11,884 bases of DNA from a virus (Duplodnaviria; Heunggongvirae; Uroviricota; Caudoviricetes): IMG/VR virus record IMGVR_UViG_2703719368_000012, positions 1 to 11,884 of that record, one strand, 5' to 3'. How positions within the stretch are numbered: position 1 is the stretch's first letter; each line of letters begins with the position of its first letter. Positions 1 to 11,884 of the stretch are shown in pieces. The translations under genes and the position numbers were made by a program. The notes below the pieces were generated by a model. It did not search any database. It saw only the letters and a program-made list of their open reading frames with translations, and had not been told where the DNA came from.

Positions 1-2343
1 GCATCGTGCAGGGCGTTATGGCGTTCACCTTCGAATGGAATAGTCGTTCTTGCGTCGAAATCCATCACCAGTCCCAGAGCAACCATCGTTCTTACATCGC
101 GATCATTGGTGTAACGCCACGGGCAGGGGATCCCCTGCCGTTCATATGAACGGCGTAAAATCACGTTGTCGAAAGTTGCACCGTTACCCCAGACCTGAAC
201 AAAAAATTCACCGGAGTTTTCGTCGATAAATTCCCGGAATTGCAGCAGTGCATCATCCAACGTGATTTCATCGGTCAGAATGGAGGATTGTGCTTCGCGT
301 GACTGTTTCAGCCACCACTTAATGGTGTCCCGATCGATGACCCCACCTGCGGTTTCCAGATCGATAGTTTTGCTGAATTCTGGCCCCATCTCTCCGGTTG
401 CCGGATCAAAAAACTTACCGGCTATAGAGTTTATTGGCGCATCAGGATTTTTTCCCATTGTTTCAAGGTCAATCATCAGATGGTGCCACAACCTGCTGGT
501 GGATGAGATTTCATGATGACCGTTCACTTTAATTAAGGGATTTGCTGTTTCGCCAGTTTTATTATCGCTGGCGTGATACTGATCGCTGCCAGTGTTCTCC
601 TTGTGCAGATGTTCAGTGCCTTCCATTTCCTCCGGATCATTTTTCTGAGCTTCAGCCTGATTCTCTTCATCGAATGTTTCCAGGTAGGTTGCGTTCCCCA
701 TCACCGCACCACAGTCAGGACAGTTGCCGCCACCGGTCTGACCGCATGCGGTGCAAACTTTTTCCAGTTCCTGTTGCACTGCTGGTTCTGGTTGTTGTTC
801 TTCTGGCCCGTTTTGTTGCGTATCCGGGCTGTTTTGTTCCGCTTCTGGCTCATTTTGTTTCACGTTGGGCTGATTCTGGTCCTCAGCGTCGCGACTCTGG
901 ATCCCTTTCACCCATTTCGGATCATTCGGGTCGCTAATCCCTTCAACAAATTCACCACGTGATGCAGCAAGCAATTTATCGGCGTCAGGCTGGCTGATAT
1001 TGGCTGCCTGCATAATTTTGTTTACTTCGTCAGCGGTAACTTTTACCGGCTCTGATTGTTCGGAATCTTCAGCGGTATCCACATTTTGCGGTAAGCCCGT
1101 GTATGTGCCATTTTTTCGGGCAAAATATTCTTCTTTTGAGATTTCGGTACCGCCGGCAGCCAGCGCCTTGTCCAGACCAGAAAGTTTGTTTGCCCTGCCG
1201 TATTTTTCCCCGCCCTTATCGGTAAAGACGAAATAAAATGGTCCTTCACGCTCTACAGATGGTTCAGCTTCCACCAGGATTTCATTTTTTTGAGTATCGG
1301 ATTCTGCCGTCTCCACTGGAGCAGTTTGTGCTGCTGACGGCTGGAGAGCATCAGTAGAGCTCTGGTCTGTTTCTTCATGTTCAAACACGCCCTTTGTCGT
1401 CAGGTATTCACTGATATATTTGTTCAGTGCAACGGGATCTTTGTGAATATCGATCGGACGTTCGCGAACAAGGCCAAAAATAGTCTGACGGTCATAGCCA
1501 AGTGCTTCGGGCTGTTTGCGCATTGATGCTGAGATACGCTTCCAGTCTTCGCGATCCTTGTCGATAACCTCATTTGTCGCCCAGCGATGGATGGTACCGT
1601 CAATGTTTCCTGCATCCACATCACCGGGCCAGAGGGCGCAGGCCAGTTCATTGTCGAGTGTTTTCCATGTCTGTTTGTATTCGCGGCGAATGGCAAAAGA
1701 GATCAACAACAGACGTGTATTTTCCGGTTTCCTTGCGTTCACCTTCGCGACGTTTTTTCCAGATGCGCATCTCTGCCTGAATTTCAGGCCATTTAGCGCC
1801 AGGCTCACATTTATGCTTAACCCACCCGATGGCATGCAGTTTAAGTTCAGGATACATGGCGTTAACTTCTGGCATTTTCATCAACGCTTCAACGATATGT
1901 CCGCCGAATGTTGCCATGTCTTCCTGTAGTAATTCCTGTGCGCTAATCACCATATCAACGGTGATGTTTTCGCATGTGTCGAATTTAACCAGGACTGCGT
2001 TCTGTACTTCAGGGGACAGCTTGTCAAAATTGACGTTCATCGGATCGGATTCTGGTTCGACCGGTACAAAGGAAGCTGACTCCTCATCCCAGCGGTTTTC
2101 CTGCATATATTCGGTATCCCAGGAATCGAGGGCAGGGCGGGGTATGCCGGGTTTATCCTCGCAGACAATAAATTTATAAGCGCAGTCCTGAGCTGCCGGG
2201 AATTGCTCCAGAAATTGCCAGTGAAATTTTGCGCGTGCGCGACGCTCATCACCGGCTTCAATGGCAGTGGCCACCGCAACAGCGCTATCTTCTTTTATGG
2301 CCTGTTCGTCAGGAATAGCAGCGCAAATAAAGATTTTACTCAT
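1..2343 (-). CDS. Phage exonuclease (exodeoxyribonuclease VIII-like annotation class) with C-terminal DEDDh 3'-5' exonuclease domain; reading frame broken near 1695-1698; 3' end beyond window edge
   Basis: Minus-strand ATG at 2343 with GAGG about 10 nt upstream opens a 231-codon ORF (MSKIFICAAIPDEQ...) that stops at 1648. A second minus-strand frame, open from about 1740 to position 1 with no stop, continues plausibly (FAIRREYKQTWKTLDNELACALWPGDVDAGN...). It contains a Cys4 motif (CTACGQTGGGNCPDCGAV) and, near coordinates 1-500, DEDDh-like exonuclease motifs (MIDLETMG, WGNGATFD, HNALHDA). The two frames overlap around an A4/T4 run at 1695-1698. Confidence 0.8.
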
Positions 2344-2436
2344 TGTGTTTTAACCTCATTACAGATTTAAGGGTGAACAAATCCCTGCCATTGCTGGCAT
2401 ATAAAAATGAAACCGGATATTAATTACGGTGCTGTT

Positions 2437-2628
2437 TTAAAGTCCTGCCGGTATTTCGTTATTATTAGTGTGAGTAGTTTTATCTACCGGATAACAGTTA
2501 CCGGGAATTTTTTGTTCTGCTGCTGCAGCCATGCATTCTTTCATTGAACCGTATAAGCCAGTCACCAGCTCAAGAGATTCGCCGGAAACAAGATAAACTG
2601 TCAGAACGAGTGCAAATGTTGTATTCAT
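2437..2628 (-). CDS. Small hypothetical prophage protein, 63 aa, hydrophobic N-terminus (possible signal peptide or membrane anchor)
   Basis: ORF MNTTFALVLTVYLVSGESLELV...; AAGGA about 9 nt upstream of the ATG; its start overlaps the upstream gene stop in an ATGA arrangement (2625-2628), suggesting translational coupling. Confidence 0.5.
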   Translation of the reverse strand: MNTTFALVLTVYLVSGESLELVTGLYGSMKECMAAAAEQKIPGNCYPVDKTTHTNNNEIPAGL

Positions 2629-2813
2629 TGTTTATATCCTTTTTGCAGCAGGTCCAGACGAGCCAGCATTGAAGGAATGCATACTTCATTTAACAGGTCC
2701 TGCTCGAGTTTTCTCTGCTTAATGGCGTCTTCAATAAATGTTTTGTCTCCAGTGATAACGCCAATTTCGAAACGAAGTTCAGACGTGCTGGCATTACATG
2801 ATAACTTTTCCAT
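2625..2813 (-). CDS. Small early-left protein, possibly Kil-like host cell division inhibitor (62 aa)
   Basis: Internal ATG at 2811-2813 is preceded by GAGGA about 8 nt upstream; the longer track ORF to 2921 has no comparable RBS. Product MEKLSCNASTSELRFEIGVITGDKTFIEDAIKQ... loosely resembles lambda Kil (FIGDEKMFREAV) in my recollection; size and position between exonuclease and the distal early genes fit a kil-type gene. Confidence 0.45.
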   Translation of the reverse strand: MEKLSCNASTSELRFEIGVITGDKTFIEDAIKQRKLEQDLLNEVCIPSMLARLDLLQKGYKQ

Positions 2814-3386
2814 TATCGCGTCCTCAACAATGAATTTTGTGATGCGGTGCCTGGTGCCTCCAGGTGACGTTAACCAGTTAACAATTAACGCCGGATACAG
2901 AGCATTCTCGTTACTCAGCAAATGACCGCTTTACCGATTTAACTGTTCCGCGTGCGCTGAGCCGCATTCACCGCATCACAAAATTCACTTTTAAAAAAGG
3001 GCGGCAGAGCAGTTACGGAGTAAAACTGATACCGCCAAATGTCACCAGAATATTGATAACAGAGGGCGTTGCAGCGGGGTTGTCACTTAAGCGTATGGTC
3101 AACCTGACAACCCGGTGTCCTCAACGGGGAAAGAATAACCCCGCCATACTTACCGCCGCGCCATTTCGCGGATTGCCACAACCGGAAGCGCACGGTCGAA
3201 TTAAATTTAACGACGGCTCTAAGGGAGAAGGACTTCGCCGTGCACTTTCGTGTTATGCCCTGACTTTTCAGGGATATATCCTTTCAGTAAACTGTCAGTG
3301 CCGGATTCTTATCTGTGTCCGGCGCACGACCACACGTAGCAGCGTGTTGGTCTCCATTTTTAATTCAGCCCTTAATGGAGGATAAA

Positions 3387-3572
3387 ATGCCAAACAAACC
3401 ATGCCCTGCCTGTAACGCTCTTTCTGGCTTTTTAGAGAAGGGCGGTTATTACATTTTTAACTGTCCAGAACATGTTGAATTTCATATATCAAAACTTGAC
3501 AGTATCATTACAAAGCCAAATCAGTATCAGTCTGATTTACTGAATAAAGAGTTAAACGCCGCCCGAGATTAA
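3387..3572 (+). CDS. Small zinc-ribbon-like protein (61 aa), function unknown
   Basis: ATG at 3387 with GGAGGA 4 nt upstream (3377-3382). Product MPNKPCPACNALSGFLEKGGYYIFNCPEHVEF... has CPAC ... CPEH spacing typical of a small Zn ribbon. It is plus-strand, convergent with the next gene, inside an AT-richer segment. Confidence 0.45.
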   Translation: MPNKPCPACNALSGFLEKGGYYIFNCPEHVEFHISKLDSIITKPNQYQSDLLNKELNAARD

Positions 3573-3610
3573 GGGCGTAGTGGCCCATTAAAAATATTGC
3601 AAAGACCAAC

Positions 3611-4148
3611 TATTGTTGAACTGGATTAAACCAGTAATTCTCTATTGCTCTTATTGTTACCATCGGATGATTGCCGGGGGTTATTTTAAGTTCGGGAGGA
3701 AAAGGCTCTCCATCAGCAGCCATCATTGAGTATGTGAAATCCGCCGACGCAGTCCCTTTCATGATAATTCCGAATTTTTCAAGTAATGAGAGCAGTTCCG
3801 GTAATCCTGTGTCATCTGAATAACTTTCCTCATAGAAAGAAGCGATTGCCGCAGGAGATGACAGTTCTCGCTCTGCAATTTTTTTGTAGTTTTCCAGAAT
3901 TCTTTTTTTGAATACTTTTCCTCGACATGAAAACCCATCACCGAGGCAATCCGCTTTGCAGTTTCTTCAGTATTCTGGTTGTTTGTTACCGAAACAGAGT
4001 ACAATCCGGTAAACGCATCGCGCACATTACGAGCCATATTATCAATGTATTTCTTCGTTGCAGATTCTAATTCAACTTCGTTCAGACGTTGGTGAAGTGC
4101 ATGTGCTGCAATTTCCTGGATTTCTTTTAGTAAATCTTTAAATTCCAT
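3611..4148 (-). CDS. Hypothetical prophage accessory protein (about 179 aa if read through); frame interrupted at a homopolymeric A7 tract
   Basis: ATG at 4148 (MEFKDLLKEIQEIAAHALHQRLNEVELESATKKYIDNMARNVRDAF...). After KYSKK at the A7 tract (plus-strand T7 at 3903-3909; a second T7 at 3879-3885) the -1 frame continues protein-like (RILENYKKIAERELSSPAAIASFYEESYSDDTGLPELLSLLEKFGIIMKG...NYWFNPVQQ) to a stop at 3611-3613. The zero frame instead reads EFWKTTKKLQSENCHLLRQ... and stops at 3759. Total length 538 nt is not a multiple of 3. Confidence 0.5.
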
Positions 4149-4159
4149 CTTTAACTCCG

Positions 4160-4288
4160 TTAGTCGTTAGATTTTGCCGAACTGGAAAGCGCCTGTTTAA
4201 ACTCACTGAAGCTGAGAGCTTCCTCGCCTTCGGCAAGGCCTTCGAAGTATTCTTCGTAAGCCTTTTCCATGATTGTGTCGAAATCCAT
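4160..4288 (-). CDS. ydaG: YdaG-like small prophage protein (42 aa)
   Basis: ATG at 4286-4288 with AGGTGA about 7 nt upstream; product MDFDTIMEKAYEEYFEGLAEGEEALSFSEFKQALSSSAKSND matches my recollection of Rac-prophage YdaG; sits immediately downstream of the ydaF-like gene. Confidence 0.6.
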   Translation of the reverse strand: MDFDTIMEKAYEEYFEGLAEGEEALSFSEFKQALSSSAKSND

Positions 4289-4289
4289 A

Positions 4290-4445
4290 TCACTCACCTG
4301 AGTTTCTTTCCAGCCAGCGACGGGCACCATTTTCGGTTTTAAACGTTTTGCTTTTGGTATACGTCATCGCGGTGAATGTACCGTCCTGGTTGGGAAACAC
4401 GCCGTACACCAGAGATTCGTTGTTGCCAAGATCGATAGTATCCAT
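4290..4445 (-). CDS. ydaF: YdaF-like small prophage protein (51 aa)
   Basis: ATG at 4443-4445 with GAGG about 6 nt upstream; product MDTIDLGNNESLVYGVFPNQDGTFTAMTYTKSKTFKTENGARRWLERNSGE matches my recollection of Rac YdaF (DUF1391). The track ORF extends 13 codons further upstream without an RBS. Confidence 0.65.
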   Translation of the reverse strand: MDTIDLGNNESLVYGVFPNQDGTFTAMTYTKSKTFKTENGARRWLERNSGE

Positions 4446-4621
4446 GTTGACCTCATTTCCCCTTAACGCCGGGTAGCGGAACAAAAACCTGCTGCATAGT
4501 TATTAAAGTTGAACCCTGCCGTCATGTTCATACGCCTCGGGCTGGCTACTTACCCCCTGACCACTGCTTGGTAACTCGAAGTATTGCCCGGCGTTCTGTG
4601 GGGCGGGGTGGGTGGTTGGTG

Positions 4622-4661
4622 TATGTAATCTACAATTAAAAACTGTTTTTGTGTCAACAGT
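4622..4661. promoter_or_regulatory. OL-like operator palindrome with embedded leftward (pL-like) promoter
   Basis: Perfect inverted repeat, 16-bp arms (4622-4637 and 4646-4661, AATTAAAAACTGTT / AACAGTTTTTAATT core) with an 8-bp spacer. On the minus strand the spacer and arm contain a consensus TTGACA (plus-strand 4643-4648). The unit is near-identical to the palindrome at 5667-5705. Confidence 0.5.
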
Positions 4662-4671
4662 TTTTAATTGT

Positions 4672-4694
4672 TGTTTTGGGCAAAAAAATCCCTC
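4672..4694 (-). terminator. Rho-independent terminator ending the repressor-antitoxin-toxin transcription unit
   Basis: On the minus strand: stem TCCCTC/GAGGGA (4679-4684 and 4689-4694) with a GAAA-type tetraloop, followed by a T7 run (plus-strand A7 at 4672-4678); lies 30-50 nt downstream of the toxin stop at 4723. Confidence 0.6.
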
Positions 4695-4722
4695 GAAAGA
4701 GGGAGTATGAAAATTGTTCAAC

Positions 4723-5010
4723 TCAGATAGAGAAGGGAAATTGTCGCCGAGAATGTGTCACGCTTACAATCTCAATGCTTGAAGCAGCTACTCTGTACAG
4801 GATTATGTAGTTAGGGTGGGTCACGATCTCTCTCAATCCAGAAACCCGTTCGCTTGGTGGATATAAGTACGGATGCTCAGATAGAGGTAATACCGATGTT
4901 TCAATGCGTATTTTTAGTCTACGTGCTGCCGGTGGGTTCTCCTTGGCGATGTAAGTTATGATCTGGCGCAAATCATCGCGAGCAGACGGTAGCCATAAAA
5001 TGGGTAACAT
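4723..5010 (-). CDS. Type II toxin, ParE/RelE family (95 aa)
   Basis: Product MLPILWLPSARDDLRQIITYIAKENPPAARRLKIRIETSVLPLSEHPYLYPPSERVSGLREIVTHPNYIILYRVAASSIEIVSVTHSRRQ carries the ParE/RelE signature pattern (W..A..DL..I..YI, GLRE, YII.YR, V.H..R). Its start overlaps the upstream small gene stop by 1 nt (TAATG). Confidence 0.7.
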   Translation of the reverse strand: MLPILWLPSARDDLRQIITYIAKENPPAARRLKIRIETSVLPLSEHPYLYPPSERVSGLREIVTHPNYIILYRVAASSIEIVSVTHSRRQFPFSI

Positions 5011-5201
5011 TACTCGCTCTTGTTAGTTACAGCAATTTGAGCAATAAGATTTTCCATTTCAGCCATTACCTCGTCATGTGGAATTGCGGGGCGAGTGTCT
5101 GCAAGGCTTGACGTTACTTTAGTGCGCAACCATTCGTTGTAACTGTTTTCTTGTTCGGTAGTTTCGAATTCTGAAACTATCGGAGAAAGGGCTGTACCCA
5201 T
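5010..5201 (-). CDS. Putative cognate antitoxin of the ParE/RelE-family toxin (63 aa)
   Basis: ATG at 5199-5201 with GAGGAG 5 nt upstream; small acidic product (MGTALSPIVSEFETTEQENSYNEWLRTKVTSSLADTRPAIPHDEVMAEMENLIAQIAVTNKSE); immediately upstream of and overlapping the toxin gene in the canonical antitoxin-first order. Confidence 0.6.
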   Translation of the reverse strand: MGTALSPIVSEFETTEQENSYNEWLRTKVTSSLADTRPAIPHDEVMAEMENLIAQIAVTNKSE

Positions 5202-5228
5202 GGCATAACTCCTCTTCTTGTACTGTGG

Positions 5229-5630
5229 TCACGCCCGGCGGCTTTTTTGTGCCGCCAGCCACCTAGCAATGGTTTCTTCCATTGATTTTTTCTTGTCTTT
5301 GATTTCTTGAAGCATTTTTTCTTGGTCTTCCTCAGGAAACGCACTAAAAGCTTGGAGCAGTTCGCGTTGGCGAGGACCAATTTTCATCGTGTCAGGGGTG
5401 AAAATTTGCTCACACTCTTCAGGAGGCAATAAAAACCAATGCAATGGATGCCCTGAAACCTCAACCAGTTTATCCAAACTTGAGGCTTTAGGTGTAGCCT
5501 TACCGCTGACCCATTGTTGAACAGTTTGTTGTGTCACACCAATTCTACGGGCAAGCTCAGCCTGGCTCCATCCAGTTTCCTGAAGAAGCTTGCTGATTCT
5601 GTACATAGATACTTCTAGGGCGCTCATCAT
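5229..5630 (-). CDS. Prophage repressor-like HTH (XRE/Cro-CI family) DNA-binding protein, about 133 aa, no peptidase domain
   Basis: HTH signature SQAELARRIGVTQQTVQQWVSGKATPK; transcribed divergently from the cro-like gene across the operator region at 5631-5738. ATG at 5630 has no Shine-Dalgarno (possibly leaderless); an alternative ATG at 5606 gives 125 aa. Confidence 0.7.
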   Translation of the reverse strand: MMSALEVSMYRISKLLQETGWSQAELARRIGVTQQTVQQWVSGKATPKASSLDKLVEVSGHPLHWFLLPPEECEQIFTPDTMKIGPRQRELLQAFSAFPEEDQEKMLQEIKDKKKSMEETIARWLAAQKSRRA

Positions 5631-5666
5631 TATTCAATTTTACAGGTAAATACTGTTAAAAGCATC

Positions 5667-5705
5667 ACAATAAAAAACTGTTGATTGCATACAGTTTTTT
5701 ATTGT
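5667..5705. promoter_or_regulatory. OR-like operator palindrome with divergent promoters (rightward pR-like; repressor promoter on the opposite strand)
   Basis: Inverted repeat with 15-bp arms (5667-5681 ACAATAAAAAACTGT and 5691-5705 ACAGTTTTTTATTGT), 9-bp spacer containing TTGATT; an extra ACTGTT half-site at 5651-5656; candidate -10 TATAGT at 5716-5721 ahead of the GGAGG RBS and ATG at 5739. Confidence 0.55.
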
Positions 5706-5738
5706 AGGCTTTGCTTATAGTTTTTAGAGGAGGGCAAA

Positions 5739-6011
5739 ATGCTAGATAGCACTCGCGAAAAAATTAGGCAGAAATACACTCAGGCTGAAATAGGTCGTTA
5801 TATGGGGGTCGCTCAACAGACTGTTTGGCAATGGTTTAGCTTTGGCGTTCCCCCAAAGCAGGTAATTCCGTTATGCCAACTAATGAAGTGGGAAGTTACC
5901 CCGCATGAAATCCGCCCAGATATTTATCCTAACCCAACCGACGGTTTACCTGTTGGATGTAAGGTTAACACATCAAATGCGCCGGAGTTGATTCATGAAA
6001 ATCAAGCATGA
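5739..6011 (+). CDS. ydaS: Cro-like HTH regulator, YdaS family (90 aa)
   Basis: ATG at 5739 with GGAGG 8 nt upstream; HTH AEIGRYMGVAQQTVWQW and a C-terminal ...EVTPHEIRPDI motif recalling the YdaS-family ELRPD motif; first gene of the rightward operon. Confidence 0.7.
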   Translation: MLDSTREKIRQKYTQAEIGRYMGVAQQTVWQWFSFGVPPKQVIPLCQLMKWEVTPHEIRPDIYPNPTDGLPVGCKVNTSNAPELIHENQA

Positions 6012-6420
6012 ACACATCCGCATGGCGATGAATGCCTGGGCGCATCCGGACGGCGAAAAAGTACCGGCTGCGAAAATTACCAAAGCGTATTTCGAGCTGG
6101 GAATGACGTTCCCGGAACTGTATGACGACAGCCATCCGGAAGCCATGGCTCGCAATACTCAGAAAATTTTCCGCTGGGTGGAGAAAGACACTCCTGATGC
6201 GGTTAAAAAAATTCAGGCGTTGTTACCAGCGATCGAAAAAGCGATGCCGCCTCCGCTGGTGGCCCGAATGCGCAGCCACAGTTCCGCTTATTTTCGGGAG
6301 TTGGTAGAGACGAAGGAACGGCTGGTGAAAGATATTGATGATTTCGTTGCATCAGCGATCGTTCTGTTCGATCAGATGAATCGTGGTGGCCCGGCAGGAA
6401 ACACTCTGGCTGTGCATTAA
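5995..6420 (+). CDS. ydaT: YdaT-like protein (141 aa), toxic-when-derepressed family in Rac
   Basis: Product begins MKIKHEHI, as I recall for Rac YdaT; start overlaps the end of the ydaS-like gene by 17 nt; GGAG about 8 nt upstream. Confidence 0.7.
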   Translation: MKIKHEHIRMAMNAWAHPDGEKVPAAKITKAYFELGMTFPELYDDSHPEAMARNTQKIFRWVEKDTPDAVKKIQALLPAIEKAMPPPLVARMRSHSSAYFRELVETKERLVKDIDDFVASAIVLFDQMNRGGPAGNTLAVH

Positions 6421-6433
6421 TTGGGTAATAAAT

Positions 6434-6943
6434 ATGAGTAATGACAAAAAATTGACACTGAGCGTTTACGAAAACAGTCCGCACATCTGGCGTGGCGGTT
6501 TATCTGATGTGGAGCTGGCAGAGTGGTTGATACATAAAGCTAATGCGCTGCTCTGGCGTTTGTCAGCCAGAGAACAGCGCAAGGAAACCAGAATAAAGCT
6601 GGCTGATGCAGAAGCGTGTGCCGGGCTTATTGAGGATTATACAAATCTTGGTATTTCTTCAGCAGAGAGTGATCCCATTCAGCCTCTGAGCAGGGAGTCA
6701 ATCCAGCACGCTGGTTGTATGGCACATCTTGTAACTGCTCGTCAACATGAGGTGGGTATTGGATCACTTCCGGCGGGATATTCGCTGATTCCAGAGCTGG
6801 TTGAAGCAAGAAAATCAGTTCAGAAAAAGAGAGATGACGCACTTCAATTATTGAGAGAGCACTATGGCGCGATACCAGAATGCGAACAGCGTCGATACCC
6901 TGAAGGTTATGAATGGATGCAGTCTCTTTTTGAAGTTCGCTAA
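6434..6943 (+). CDS. Hypothetical early-right protein (169 aa)
   Basis: ATG at 6434 (MSNDKKLTLSVYENSPHIWRGGLSDVELAEWL...); ordinary codon usage; the RBS is weak, and an alternative GTG at 6383 would overlap the ydaT-like gene. Confidence 0.55.
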   Translation: MSNDKKLTLSVYENSPHIWRGGLSDVELAEWLIHKANALLWRLSAREQRKETRIKLADAEACAGLIEDYTNLGISSAESDPIQPLSRESIQHAGCMAHLVTARQHEVGIGSLPAGYSLIPELVEARKSVQKKRDDALQLLREHYGAIPECEQRRYPEGYEWMQSLFEVR

Positions 6944-7160
6944 TCAATATGTCGAGACGAAGGTATGTTTCGGCGCGCAGCCAGGCTCTGTAATCCGGGA
7001 GCATTTCGGGGCTGTTACACCAGCGGTTTGTTGCTGCAACATTTAATACATGAGCCTGATAAAGGCTTTTCAAAAAATACATGTCGAACCTCCTCTGGTT
7101 CTGTCGATTGGGAACCACAGATTATATCCGGAGGAAGGTTCGGCACCAGATGAGGTAGCC

Positions 7161-8252
7161 ATGCGTGATTACGCAAAAGTTTCTCCGCGATTCTGGCTGG
7201 GAGAAACGGGGAGAGAACTTAGAAAGGCGGGTGCAGAAGCGCAAGTTGTTGCTTTTTACCTGATGACATCCCCTCACGCAAATATGCTGGGTTTGTATTA
7301 CCTGCCAGTTTTATACCTTGCTCATGAAACCGGGCTTGGTCTGGAAGGGGCTTCAAAGGGGCTTAAAAGGGCTGTTGAAGCTGGTTTTTGTAGCTATGAC
7401 CATGATGCAGAGATGGTCTGGGTCCATGAAATGGCAGCCTGGCAGGTTGGGGAAACGTTGAAGCCTGGCGATAACCGTTGTGCAGGTGTCAGGAATGAGT
7501 ATGCATCATTACCTGAAAACGCTTTTCTGTCAGTGTTTTACGACAGATATAAAACGGATTTCCATCTGGATGTGAGGCGGAATAATAGCCGAAATTCGGT
7601 AAGGGGCTTCGAAGGGGCTTTTAAGGGGCTTCGAAGCCAAGAACAGGAACAGGAGCAGGAGAAAGAACAGGAACAGGACAAAAACACTATGGTTCATGGC
7701 AAAAAAAACACCACGAACCAGGCAGGGGATGTTCAGACCGTCAATCCTGGTCAGCCAGCAGGCACGACACCGGAAGCCGATTCGGGCGCTGTGCAGCAGG
7801 TGATGACCGCAGGGTCGGAGCAATCACACCAACTGCAGCAGCCTGAAGCCGATTCCGCCATTCAGCGGGAAGCCGATCGGGTAGTCCCGGAAAGCACCGG
7901 GCAGTCTGTGGGACGAGTGGATTATCCGGATGTGTTCGAACAGGTCTGGCGGGAATACCCGTTGCGTGCTGGGGCAAACCCGAAGAAATCCGCTTTCAGT
8001 GCCTGGAAGGCCAGATTGCGCGAGGGGGTGCCACCAGAGACCATGCTGGATGGTGTGAGGCGTTACGCGAGATACCTGGCGGCGACCGGGAAAGCGGGAA
8101 CGGAATTTGTTCAGCGAGCGACGACGTTTTTTGGGCCGGACCGGAATTTTGAAAACCCCTGGTTGCTCCCGGTAAGCGGCACGAACAACCAGCGTTGTGT
8201 GAATCATATTTCTGAACCGGATACCGAAATTCCGCCGGGATTCAGGGGGTGA
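7161..8252 (+). CDS. ydaU: YdaU-like (DUF1376) putative replication initiation or replisome-organizer protein with an EQ-rich linker (363 aa from this start)
   Basis: ATG at 7161 with GAGGT 4 nt upstream. N-terminal region (FWLGETGRELRKAGAEAQVVAFYLMTSPHANMLGLYYLPVLYLAHETG...EMVWVHEMAAWQVGE) matches my recollection of Rac YdaU; it directly precedes the DnaC-like gene, as lambda O precedes P. The track ORF begins at ATG 7050 but has no RBS there. Confidence 0.75.
   Translation: MRDYAKVSPRFWLGETGRELRKAGAEAQVVAFYLMTSPHANMLGLYYLPVLYLAHETGLGLEGASKGLKRAVEAGFCSYDHDAEMVWVHEMAAWQVGETLKPGDNRCAGVRNEYASLPENAFLSVFYDRYKTDFHLDVRRNNSRNSVRGFEGAFKGLRSQEQEQEQEKEQEQDKNTMVHGKKNTTNQAGDVQTVNPGQPAGTTPEADSGAVQQVMTAGSEQSHQLQQPEADSAIQREADRVVPESTGQSVGRVDYPDVFEQVWREYPLRAGANPKKSAFSAWKARLREGVPPETMLDGVRRYARYLAATGKAGTEFVQRATTFFGPDRNFENPWLLPVSGTNNQRCVNHISEPDTEIPPGFRG
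7345..7375 (+). repeat. Iteron-like direct repeats, cluster 1 (AAGGGGCTT at 11-bp spacing)
   Basis: AAGGGGCTT at 7345-7353 and 7356-7364, with a degenerate third copy (AAAAGGGCT) at about 7367; exactly 11-bp periodicity. Confidence 0.45.
7601..7682 (+). repeat. Iteron-like direct repeats, cluster 2 (3 x AAGGGGCTT at 11-bp spacing) followed by a tandem hexanucleotide (GAACAG-like) array and an A-rich tract; candidate origin within the initiator gene
   Basis: AAGGGGCTT at 7601-7609, 7612-7620 and 7623-7631; then GAACAG GAACAG GAGCAG GAGAAA GAACAG GAACAG GACAAA (7641-7682), encoding the QEQEQEQEKEQEQDK linker; then A-rich sequence including an A8 run. Confidence 0.5.
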
Positions 8253-8258
8253 TGTGGC

Positions 8259-9005
8259 ATGAAAAACATTGCGGCAGCCGGGGTTCTTGAACGTATTCGC
8301 AGACTTGCACCACAGGCGTCGGTTCCACCGTACCGGACGGTGGAGGAGTGGCGGGAATGGCAACTTGCTGAAGGACGAAAACGCAGCGAGGAGATTAACC
8401 GCCAGAATCACCAGTTGCGGGTGGAAAAAATCCTGAATCGTTCGGGCATCCAGCCTCTGCACAGCAAATGCTCGTTTGCGAATTATCAGGTGCAGAACGA
8501 CGGGCAAAAATACGCGCTGAGCCAGGCCAAATCCATAGCTGACGAACTGATGACCGGGTGCACGAATTTTGTGTTCAGCGGTAAAACCGGCACCGGGAAA
8601 AATCACCTTGCAGCGGCGATGGGTAACCGGCTGATGGCGAAGGGGCGCAGCGTGATTATCGTCACCGTGTCTGATGTCATGAGCGTGTTGCATGACAGCT
8701 ACGACAACGGCAAATCCGGGGAAAAATTTTTACAGGAGCTTTGCAGTGTTGATTTGCTGGTCCTGGATGAAATAGGCGTTCAGCGGGAGACGAAAAACGA
8801 GCAGGTGGTATTACACCAGATAATTGATCGCCGGACAGCATCACTGTGCAGTGTCGGGATGTTAACAAACCTGAATCATGCCGCAATGAGTACACTTCTT
8901 GGTGAGAGGATTATGGACCGCATGACCATGAACGGTGGTCGATGGGTGACGTTTAACTGGGATAGCTGGCGTCCAAATGTCAGCAATATGAGGGTTGTGA
9001 AGTAA
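8259..9005 (+). CDS. ydaV: DnaC-like AAA+ helicase loader (YdaV-like replication protein, 248 aa)
   Basis: Walker A GKTGTGKNHLAAA and Walker B LLVLDEIG; N-terminus MKNIAAAGVLERIRRLAP as I recall for Rac YdaV; ATG 6 nt after the upstream stop, AGGGGG RBS. Confidence 0.9.
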   Translation: MKNIAAAGVLERIRRLAPQASVPPYRTVEEWREWQLAEGRKRSEEINRQNHQLRVEKILNRSGIQPLHSKCSFANYQVQNDGQKYALSQAKSIADELMTGCTNFVFSGKTGTGKNHLAAAMGNRLMAKGRSVIIVTVSDVMSVLHDSYDNGKSGEKFLQELCSVDLLVLDEIGVQRETKNEQVVLHQIIDRRTASLCSVGMLTNLNHAAMSTLLGERIMDRMTMNGGRWVTFNWDSWRPNVSNMRVVK

Positions 9006-9026
9006 TTTTGTCCGGAGGAAATTTTA

Positions 9027-9614
9027 ATGGAAACCGTATCTGACGCACTGAAAGCACTGAAAAAAGCCTCTTCACATGTGGTGGCAGCTCGCCTTGGAAT
9101 CAGTCGTGAAGAGGCTGTCAACGAGCTGTGGGAACTCAAAATAAATGGCGTCGTTGATAAAACTGGTCACACCTGGTTTCTGGCTGGCGAAGGTGAATCC
9201 CGGGTAACCGAAGAGCGGCCAGTAAAATCTGAAGCACAGGATATGCTGACCGGGGAGGTCGAACAAAAAGTTACCGCAGACATGATGATTGAGTTTATCG
9301 GTCAGGATGGGGCTAAAACGTGTGAGGAACTGGCGGGTAAGTTCGGTGTCAGTACTCGCAAGGTTGCTTCCACGCTGGCGGTGGTAACCGCAACGGGGCG
9401 GCTGGCACGCGTTAATCAGAACGGTAAATTTCGTTACTGCATGCCGGGCGATAATTTACCAGCAGAGCCGAAAGCCGCGCTGGTAACGGAAAGTGATGGT
9501 AAGGCCTTTCCTCAGAACGTGTTGTATCGGAAAAGTGATTGCCGGAGGCGCTTATGGCAAAAGTATTTACACAGGAAGAGCGGGAAAAAATTAAAGGGCA
9601 GGTTGTTGAGCTAG
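9027..9614 (+). CDS. Hypothetical prophage protein with winged-helix-like repeats (possibly DUF1627-like), 195 aa
   Basis: ATG at 9027 with GGAGG 8 nt upstream; two similar HTH-like segments (ARLGISREEAVNELWELKINGVVDKTG and ELAGKFGVSTRKVASTLAVVTATGRLARV). The last 25 or so codons overlap the next gene and look low-quality. Confidence 0.6.
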   Translation: METVSDALKALKKASSHVVAARLGISREEAVNELWELKINGVVDKTGHTWFLAGEGESRVTEERPVKSEAQDMLTGEVEQKVTADMMIEFIGQDGAKTCEELAGKFGVSTRKVASTLAVVTATGRLARVNQNGKFRYCMPGDNLPAEPKAALVTESDGKAFPQNVLYRKSDCRRRLWQKYLHRKSGKKLKGRLLS

Positions 9615-9967
9615 TACGCCGGAGTGGGCGCGAGACGTTACGGCAACTGGAAGCCAAGACAGGTGCGACAAGATATCTGATGAGCGTTCTTGCCAGAGAG
9701 CTGGTTGCCAGTGGCGATGTATACAACTCTGGTTACGGGTTATTCCCATCTGAACAGGCTCGTAAGGACTGGCAAAACGCCCGCAAAAAACTATCGAGGG
9801 CAAAACTGAAGAAACCGGTTGTGGTTGATCCTGACCTTATCTGGTCATTACCAGACGGAGAAATACGCCGCTATGACAGGCAATTGAACATAATTTGTAG
9901 TGAGTGCCGTAACAGTGAAGTGATGCAGCGAGTTTTGATATTTTACACAGGAGTAATGATGGAATAG
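9554..9967 (+). CDS. Hypothetical prophage protein (137 aa)
   Basis: ATG at 9554 with GGAGG 5 nt upstream; product MAKVFTQEEREKIKGQVVELVRRSGRETLRQLEAKTGATRYLMSVLARELVASGDVY... includes a winged-helix-like segment and a CSECRNSE motif near the C-terminus. Confidence 0.55.
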   Translation: MAKVFTQEEREKIKGQVVELVRRSGRETLRQLEAKTGATRYLMSVLARELVASGDVYNSGYGLFPSEQARKDWQNARKKLSRAKLKKPVVVDPDLIWSLPDGEIRRYDRQLNIICSECRNSEVMQRVLIFYTGVMME

Positions 9968-10318
9968 TGAAAATAACATGAAACCTTTGGATTCTGGTGT
10001 TTCAGTGGATGGGAAAAGAGCAGATACATAGAAAATGAATAGCAATAATTCACAGTCTGGATGTTGTTTGTATGCTTATAAAATGATCCTAGTATGCATT
10101 GCCGGAGTTGAATCAGCTCCAATGAAGAAACTGAGAGGAGTATTTAGAAGATAGCTAAATGGATGTAATTATTAGTATCTAAAAAATAGTATTTTTGAAA
10201 TGGGTCTAAGAACACAACAATGTACAAATGAGAAGTTATCTTTTAATATGTTCAAAGACCCATTAGGATTGATATCAGTTATGTTAGCTAGATTGATAAA
10301 GTGATTACATATTTTCTG

Positions 10319-11092
10319 TTATATGCTGAAATGAATAATGCTATTCCAGAGTGCAGCAGAGAAAGTCTCCTGATGATTGAGCTCTGGAAATTGTACAATA
10401 GAAAAATTACTGTATTTTTCTGTCAAAATATTTCTCAAAACAGATTCCGCTTTGATGGCTTCAGGATATAAAGATGCGGAGTAATCAAGGCTAAGATTTC
10501 CGTTAAGCAAGCATATACTTTTAGTGTGCTTTGATTCTGATATATCATCTTTAATTATCTTGATGATTCTTTCATTCTGCCATAGAAGTGATGGTGCAGA
10601 TATATAATAATAGTTAAAGCATGAATTATTTTTTAAGCAATCAAGCACAAAAATAGCACCTAGCGAGTGCCCCCATATACCGATTCTGGAACTGTTCGGA
10701 GCAATAGTACTAACCCATGGCATGATCTGAGTTAGTAATAATTCTCGGAAAGACTGGCTTCCTCCACCAGTAAAGTAGATCCATGCTGGTTTAGAGTTAT
10801 CAACAATAGCATTTTCACCATCAGGAGTATAATCGTAAGCACGGCGATGAATGCTAAGGTTATTCCAAGATTCATAACCAAGTGTAACTAACACTGGTGG
10901 ATTGGGTAGTGCATCAATAACAGGCAGAATATCAGAAATGTAATTGTTGGCACTATTCCCATCAAGTATATAAAGAGTTGCATTATTTTTTTTAATGTTT
11001 TTTGGAGTAAAAATACATATTTTATATTTGGTGTCATGGTTAATTGAGTTAAATATGCGTGTTTGACAATGAATGTCCATATGTTTAGTCAT
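10319..11092 (-). CDS. Alpha/beta-hydrolase esterase (PF00756-like putative esterase / siderophore-esterase fold), 257 aa, no signal peptide; AT-rich cargo (moron) gene
   Basis: Catalytic nucleophile elbow GHSLG; N-terminal LYILDGNS motif and IFTP strand typical of the Fes/IroE/esterase D family; GGAG-type RBS upstream of ATG 11092; local base composition is strongly AT-rich relative to the flanking prophage genes. Confidence 0.8.
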   Translation of the reverse strand: MTKHMDIHCQTRIFNSINHDTKYKICIFTPKNIKKNNATLYILDGNSANNYISDILPVIDALPNPPVLVTLGYESWNNLSIHRRAYDYTPDGENAIVDNSKPAWIYFTGGGSQSFRELLLTQIMPWVSTIAPNSSRIGIWGHSLGAIFVLDCLKNNSCFNYYYISAPSLLWQNERIIKIIKDDISESKHTKSICLLNGNLSLDYSASLYPEAIKAESVLRNILTEKYSNFSIVQFPELNHQETFSAALWNSIIHFSI

Positions 11093-11492
11093 GCGTTCTC
11101 CCCATGAGCATTAAAGGATGCTTAAGATATGCTATGTCACTGATAAAAAATTTGTTGTGTGTGTTTAGTTATTTTATCTACCTCCATTATGATTTAAGAC
11201 TGATATATGTTATCAGCAAAGGTACATCGTTATTATTTTACCTGTCAATACATTTGATATTGATTATCGTTTACATCGCTTGCTTAGGAAATTGAAGGCA
11301 GGTAACTATCATGTCAATGAACTAACCCACAGTCTAACGTACTTCTTTCCCCAATCACCAACAACCAAATTCCTGTTATCACCACTGGGATTTTGGCGCA
11401 ACTTCATGGTGCAGAGGTAAATAGCATCAAGCAAAATCTCTTTTTCCGTTGTTGTCCTTATGGGACGTCTGTCTTTCTGACCGATTTCATAT

Positions 11493-11521
11493 TGGCGAGG
11501 TAATGGGAAGTTAAGTAGAAT
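11493..11521 (+). promoter_or_regulatory. Putative hok mRNA promoter
   Basis: TTGGCG (11493-11498), 17-nt spacer, TAGAAT (11516-11521); predicted start near 11529, just upstream of the GAGGC/GCCTC leader hairpin (11536-11550). This parallels the plasmid R1 hok leader as I recall it. Confidence 0.45.
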
Positions 11522-11589
11522 AGCTGCGGGTGCTTGAGGCTATCTGCCTCGGGCATGAACACCAACGGCAGATAGAGAAAAGCCCCAGT

Positions 11590-11657
11590 TAACATTACGC
11601 GTCCTGCAAGACGCCTAACATTAATCTGAGGCTCAATCTATGAACGGCAAATCTAGG
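11590..11657 (-). ncRNA. sok: Putative Sok-like antisense RNA (type I antitoxin), approximate boundaries
   Basis: Minus-strand candidate -10 TAAGAG (plus-strand 11664-11669) sits opposite the start region of the upstream ORF, as in R1 sok; a hairpin GCGTC/GACGC (11599-11614) lies at the expected 3' end. Ends are not determinable from sequence alone. Confidence 0.35.
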
Positions 11658-11696
11658 TTAGCCTCTTACGTGCCGAAAGGCAAGGAGAAGCAGGCT

Positions 11697-11852
11697 ATGA
11701 AGCAGCAAAAGGCGATGTTAATCGCCCTGATCGTCATCTGTTTAACCGTCATAGTGACGGCACTGGTAACGAGGAAAGACCTCTGCGAGGTACGAGTCCG
11801 AACCGGCCAGACGGAGGTCGCTGTCTTCACAGCTTACGAACCTGAGGAGTAA
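11697..11852 (+). CDS. hok: Hok/Gef-family type I toxin (51 aa); an in-frame upstream ATG at 11640 gives a mok-like leader reading frame
   Basis: Product MKQQKAMLIALIVICLTVIVTALVTRKDLCEVRVRTGQTEVAVFTAYEPEE is a canonical Hok-family sequence (single TM helix, conserved Cys, C-terminal YEPEE), closely matching my recollection of HokD/RelF. The track ORF 11640-11852 extends the frame upstream by 19 codons. Confidence 0.85.
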   Translation: MKQQKAMLIALIVICLTVIVTALVTRKDLCEVRVRTGQTEVAVFTAYEPEE

Positions 11853-11859
11853 GAGACCT

Positions 11860-11881
11860 GGCGGGGGAGAAATCCCTCGCC
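11860..11881 (+). terminator. 3' stem-loop of the hok mRNA (terminator or fold-back element); downstream part beyond window edge
   Basis: GGCGGGGG (11860-11867) pairs with CCCTCGCC (11874-11881) including one G-U pair, loop AGAAAT; begins 8 nt after the hok stop codon. The U-tract, if any, lies outside the window. Confidence 0.4.
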
Positions 11882-11884
11882 ACC

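Follow-up and report, generated by a model that had tools for sequence, protein, structure and literature searches.

Results

Organization of the locus

The window analyzed here is the whole 11,884-nt stretch of the IMG/VR virus record IMGVR_UViG_2703719368_000012, and its sequence matches the early-left region of the E. coli O157:H7 prophage Sp4/CP-933M. An exonuclease gene lies at its left end on the minus strand, with the last 67 nt of the gene beyond the window edge, and a DUF1627 gene lies on the plus strand. Each of these two genes carries a lesion, termed lesion 1 and lesion 2 below (Table 1). The window also holds the DicF and sok RNAs and a predicted toxin-antitoxin pair.

Table 1. 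Features of the window and of the loci compared with it (window positions unless stated otherwise).
Feature	Position	Strand	Remarks
Exonuclease gene nt 710-2405 (codons 238 to ~801), other frame	1..1696	-	From translation and comparison with Sakai and strain 472
Rv2179c-like DEDDh 3'-5' exonuclease domain (intact residues 641-813)	1..485	-	Cut by the window edge
Cys4 motif C551-x2-C554-x7-C562-x2-C565 (CxxC-x7-CxxC)	711..755	-	Also in the RecE middle region
16 out-of-frame codons (FCHSPRIQTDMENTRQ) and stop	1648..1698	-	From translation against intact homologues
Lesion 1, junction dinucleotide 'AA' (plus strand)	1697..1698	.	In place of exonuclease gene nt 646-709 (64 nt)
Native codons 1-215 of the exonuclease gene, ending at gene nt 645	1699..2343	-	100% identical to Sakai and strain 472; orthologue ECs_1057 / WP_000034474.1
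DicF sRNA, upstream of dicB	2999-3050	-	Rfam RF00039, 76.9 bits
ParE/RelE-family toxin	4723-5010	-	Strain 472 annotation and precomputed Pfam
PaaA2/RelB-type antitoxin	5010-5201	-	Pairs with the ParE/RelE toxin in the prophage early region; strain 472 annotation and precomputed Pfam
Truncated DUF1627 ORF, 195 aa	9027-9614	+	Gene hit by lesion 2: ECs_1075 / WP_000450992.1
Lesion 2, second 'AA' junction	9516..9517	.	In place of 261 nt of the DUF1627 gene, precisely codons 164-250
sok antitoxin RNA	11528-11702	+	RF01794, 105.6 bits; overlaps the hok-family ORF 11640-11852
IS-interrupted copy of the exonuclease gene, strain 2015C-3163 (NZ_CP027219.1)	837-5857 of extracted locus
ydfE pseudogene truncated by IS2E, K-12 cryptic prophage Qin	4579-5499 of extracted locus
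recE, K-12	4287-6887 of extracted locus		Middle region in common with window 1-1696 (-)

Six-frame translation of the window showed a minus-strand ORF of 231 aa, which runs from the ATG at 2343 to a stop at 1650-1648, just as a previous sequence-only reading had described it. A second minus-strand frame was open to window position 1. The same reading was right that this other frame reaches the window edge, but it placed the beginning at about 1740, while translation gave 1877. The predicted product of the broken exonuclease gene consists of 215 native residues and a 16-residue missense tail; the tail and its stop arise because the net loss at the break is 62 nt. We looked for a start codon preceded by a Shine-Dalgarno sequence in the downstream frame, and none was found.

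Nature of the two lesions

The first 2,400 bases of the window were 100% identical to hundreds of E. coli O157:H7 chromosomes, but every match was split in two and covered a span of 2,462 bases. When Sakai and strain 472 were aligned to the window base by base, the intact gene had 64 nt (codons 216-236 plus 1 nt) where the window has 2 nt. The filler, 'AA' on the plus strand, reads 'TT' in the coding sense. On both sides of it, window 1-1696 and window 1699-9515 were collinear with the Sakai prophage Sp4, in which ECs_1057 encodes a protein of 823 aa.

This comparison confirmed to the base the break site that had been proposed at 1695-1698, but it refuted the proposed cause, the gain or loss of one nucleotide in an A4/T4 run. 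At this site the intact allele, GGCAA|CAGTG, has no homopolymer; the A4 run in the window is made by the junction, from a native 'AA' and the filler 'AA'. The remark in the sequence-only reading that a small deletion might be present instead was correct. Homopolymer slippage as a source of the frameshift was therefore rejected, since 64 nt stand against 2 nt and the run was created by the junction. Microhomology or slipped-strand deletion was rejected as well, because no nucleotide is shared at the edges of either lesion and the 'AA' filler is non-templated; a template for it was sought in the sequence adjoining the lesions, and none was found. An IS-mediated disruption was also rejected, as the flanks are collinear and separated by 'AA' alone. 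Of the four deletion edges, three coincide with a codon boundary, but the estimated chance of this is ~0.1, which is not significant, and it carries no weight here. No known RNA was detected with Rfam in the 64-nt or the 261-nt block; DicF and sok lie elsewhere and are the same in the window and the intact locus.

The second break within 12 kb, which had also been attributed to a homopolymer, is a lesion of the same kind. This lesion 2 stands 7.8 kb from lesion 1 and likewise has a block of native sequence exchanged for two bases. At both lesions the 'AA' is on the plus strand of the record, though the two genes have opposite strands. These identical, strand-consistent scars suggest a process acting on the record.

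The entire window was compared with strain 472 (NZ_CP018245.1, with the intact locus at 1178681-1190885). There were no mismatches over 11,880 nt, save the replacement of 64 nt by 'AA' and of 261 nt by 'AA'. The comparison with Sakai added two SNPs to the two lesions. These SNPs, at window positions 4637 (T for A) and 10670 (C for T), are the sole substitutions relative to Sakai and EDL933. Both are common to strains 472, 1613, ERL04-3476, AUSMDU00002545, and others, and thereby assign the source of the window to that O157:H7 sub-lineage.

Homologues of the exonuclease gene

Alignment of the gene to intact homologues placed lesion 1 at gene nt 646-709. The intact homologue is a single 823-aa ORF in Sakai, strain 472, phage Tritos, and eight of ten further loci, and it is 816 aa long in one. 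All close homologues examined keep the 22 residues that the window lacks. The alternative that homologues have two separate genes with a natural stop and restart at this point was not borne out, as each close homologue is one ORF, 816-823 aa in length. Split copies were seen only where an IS interrupts the gene, in strain 2015C-3163 and in the K-12 Qin prophage (ydfE). In strain 2015C-3163, ISEc43 (IS66 family) has inserted into the 64-nt block lost from the window, at gene nt 653-660, and is accompanied by an 8-bp duplication.

Predicted product of the exonuclease gene

Precomputed Pfam matches assigned YdfE_N and YdfE_C domains to the N-terminus of the intact protein. The sequence-only reading had noted a Cys4 motif and a DEDDh exonuclease domain in the second frame, and both were borne out by translation and by a match to Pfam PF16473. 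With a cut-off of 27, PF16473 scored 209.6 bits for the intact orthologue and 186.6 bits for the second frame of the window. The motifs DLE, FDN, and H-x4-D were seen in the second-frame translation, which agrees with a predicted DEDDh nuclease. Among solved structures, there was a weak match to the DEDDh domain only (8KEL/8KEN, E = 1e-6).

BLASTP aligned residues 262-625 of the intact protein with residues 278-591 of RecE from the Rac prophage at 38% identity overall, and the two were near-identical over ~465-625. This RecE segment alone aligned; the C-terminal nuclease domain of RecE gave no BLASTP alignment to the protein. The protein also failed the NCBIfam equivalog model for exodeoxyribonuclease VIII, NF007259, scoring 260 bits where at least 1269 are needed. 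In intact genomes, the gene order is DUF1482/dicB, this gene, excisionase, and integrase, and no annealing protein gene (recT, bet, or erf) adjoins it. The sequence-only reading had called the product a recombination exonuclease and had advised a check for a partner annealing protein gene just outside the window. The name is not supported, as the protein shares with RecE only a non-catalytic middle region, scores below the NF007259 cut-off, and has a DEDDh domain; where the partner was looked for in intact genomes, excisionase and integrase genes were found instead.

Judged by these matches, the gene encodes a known, widespread YdfE/RecE-like prophage protein, with a predicted C-terminal DEDDh nuclease domain and no RecT/Bet partner. 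The label 'exodeoxyribonuclease VIII' is frequent in this family because the middle region is shared with RecE. This is a point for annotation, since the 'exonuclease VIII' label is set on a protein that has only the non-catalytic middle of RecE, together with a DEDDh domain. A literature search on the prophage YdfE exonuclease or prophage Rv2179c proteins returned nothing.

Searches for the junctions and the truncated products

No one-piece match to the lesion 1 junction was found among 5,426 complete E. coli genomes. A 40-mer across this junction gave no matches in IMG/VR, GTDB representative genomes, or JGI metagenomes, and the 40-mer with a wildcard gap of 0-30 nt gave none in IMG/VR. Among 153 billion gene positions, neither the 231-aa nor the 195-aa truncated product was recorded in its exact form; in the same gene-position collection, two neighbouring proteins of the locus, of 257 aa and 137 aa, occurred in about 11,000 blocks. 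The copy number of the lost blocks was also determined, and it was about 2 per O157 genome for the 64-nt block and 3-6 per genome for the 261-nt block. As the whole region is repeated in O157, block copy number did not discriminate between the readings considered below.

Position of the breakpoints relative to paralogue-variant sites and contig ends

The exonuclease gene has a second prophage copy in strain 472, whose haplotype is that of the window. This second copy differs at only 5 of 2472 nt, namely gene nt 646, 673, 2406, 2418, and 2471. The upstream piece retained in the window ends one base before variant site 646, and the lost block contains variant sites 646 and 673. Likewise, window position 1 corresponds to gene nt 2405, one base before variant site 2406. 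By our estimate, two of three ends would fall next to one of five sites within 2.5 kb with a chance of ~5e-5. However, the other side of lesion 1, at gene nt 709/710, lies 36 nt past the nearest variant site, which counts against a join artefact.

The breakpoints were also compared with the ends of draft contigs, using a numbering of the strain 472 locus in which window position 1 is 201 and the edges of lesion 2 are 9777/9778 and 10038/10039. The draft contig IMGVR_UViG_2703719366_000007 (9583 nt) was 100% identical to positions 201-9783 of the strain 472 locus. Its first base is the same as that of the window, it is intact across lesion 1, and it ends 6 nt inside lesion 2. Other draft contigs end in or just past the 261-nt block, at strain 472 locus positions 9965, 9999, 10002, 10059, and 10067. 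The region of lesion 2 is highly mosaic, with many contig ends, as seen in a spread BLAST result and 55 IMG/VR alleles. No draft contig ending at the right end of the window was present among those returned from IMG/VR.

The window behaves as a short-read contig or scaffold and not as an arbitrary slice, because its start abuts a paralogue-variant site and is shared with IMGVR_UViG_2703719366_000007. In most assemblies the locus is on a contig of 5-20 kb, which fits a contig-like window of 11.9 kb. Breaks at points where copies in the same genome diverge, the mark of a repeat gap, were thus found for lesion 1 and for the window start. For lesion 2, support for a repeat gap is indirect and comes from the ends of other draft contigs there and not from variant sites.

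Discussion

Origin of the two lesions

From the sequence comparisons we infer that a scaffolding or mis-join artefact of short-read assembly, at the level of the record, is probably the best explanation of both lesions. The window would come from short-read sequencing of an E. coli O157:H7 strain and its draft assembly, in which three correctly assembled pieces (window 1-1696, 1699-9515, and 9518-11884) abut. At the joins, from which 64 nt and 261 nt have been lost, 'AA' would serve as a 2-nt placeholder. The pieces would stop at forks of the assembly graph, created by differences from a near-identical second prophage copy in the same genome. The 'AA' itself may stand for a gap, as when NN is rendered as A, or be the trace of a mis-join. 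A gap placeholder of 2 nt is unusual among common scaffolders, which counts against this explanation. A join artefact is nevertheless favoured because of the breaks at paralogue-variant sites, which we regard as decisive. If it is correct, the frame break would belong to the sequence record and not to the organism, and the real gene would be expected to be an intact 823-aa ORF, as in every genome of the same haplotype. The sequence-only reading had weighed data quality against genuine pseudogenization. The data-quality half of that choice is the better supported, although homopolymer error, which it had in mind as the cause, is not.

It is unlikely, by comparison, that the lesions are genuine deletions private to the source strain, a case of prophage decay. 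This would call for two double-strand breaks, each closed by an end-joining-like repair that added 'AA', with 64 nt and 261 nt lost. Orthologues of the gene do decay naturally, as seen for K-12 Qin ydfE (IS2E) and strain 2015C-3163 (ISEc43), and, as the C-terminal domain has no Shine-Dalgarno-preceded restart, a real lesion would leave a null allele. However, two independent, non-templated 'AA' events on the same strand and without microhomology are very improbable; to our knowledge, E. coli has no canonical NHEJ, and deletions in E. coli usually occur between short direct repeats. The locus is otherwise identical to that of complete genomes over 11,880 nt, and the truncated products are unrecorded where neighbouring genes occur in thousands of blocks. 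Moreover, biology does not explain why the breaks and the window end coincide with paralogue-variant sites and with the ends of another contig. If lesion 1 were real after all, it would give a null allele for the nuclease domain by ordinary prophage decay, with precedents in the same gene.

Somewhat less likely again is editing or damage after assembly, in which blocks were swapped for 'AA' during data handling, unrelated to repeats. The scars are identical, the window differs in no other way from complete genomes, and the lesion 1 junction and both truncated products are absent from the collections searched, all of which would be accounted for. A random or rule-based excision, however, is not expected to fall one base from sites that discriminate between paralogues, and it would not make the window and an independent draft contig start at one and the same base.

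Both scars could also be real and stem from one process, in which a mismatched heteroduplex formed during gene conversion between prophage copies was broken and closed by end-joining with a fixed addition of 2 nt. Such breakage would explain why lesions lie at paralogue-variant sites, but we consider it improbable.

The remaining two explanations have a negligible likelihood. A 1-nt insertion or deletion at 1695-1698, by sequencing error or replication slippage, has in its favour that an A4 run does occur at the break, but the intact allele has 64 nt in place of 2 nt and no homopolymer, and the 22 residues found in all homologues are gone. A natural two-gene arrangement or a programmed frameshift might be read from PHROGs, which keeps N-terminal (1-257) and C-terminal (295-823) fragments in families of their own, so that split versions do occur among annotated phage records, but the close homologues examined are all single ORFs with the 22 residues kept, the sole split ones carry IS interruptions, and a frameshift would not restore missing residues.

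The preferred explanation, an assembly join artefact, bears on quality control. In draft assemblies, a frame break in an O157:H7 prophage can stem from a faulty join at a paralogue-variant site, and such breaks should not be tallied as pseudogenes or as homopolymer errors.

Comparison with known systems

The closest relative of the gene is the Sp4 (CP-933M) 'exonuclease' ECs_1057 (NP_309084.1) / WP_000034474.1, which is nucleotide-identical to it at all retained positions. The two loci have the same upstream-side neighbours, DUF1482/ydfD, dicB, and DicF, and in intact genomes xis and int lie just past the left edge of the window. The window differs from ECs_1057 in that gene nt 646-709 are replaced by 'TT' (coding sense) and the last 67 nt are outside.

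K-12 Qin ydfE and the copy in strain 2015C-3163 belong to the same family (Pfam YdfE_N/YdfE_C, N-terminal) and occupy the same place after dicB-ydfD. Both are real cases in which an N-terminal fragment survives. They carry a recognisable IS and target duplication, whereas the window has a 2-nt scar and no IS.

RecE (exonuclease VIII) of the Rac prophage shares its middle region, including the Cys4 motif, with the protein encoded in the window. The C-terminal nuclease of RecE is unaligned, and the Rv2179c-like DEDDh domain stands in that place in the window protein. In Rac, recT adjoins recE, whereas the Sp4 gene has no recT neighbour. Compared with K-12 recE, window 1-1696 shows a domain swap, with a common middle and unrelated nucleases.

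Finally, the lesions can be compared with the repeat-induced breaks and scaffold gaps of lambdoid prophages in short-read assemblies of O157:H7. Unlike usual scaffold gaps, those in the window are written as 'AA' and not as a run of N, and one edge is 36 nt off a variant site. In other respects they are the same: breaks lie at bases that distinguish the copies, the start is shared with another contig, and many draft contigs end in the block missing at lesion 2.
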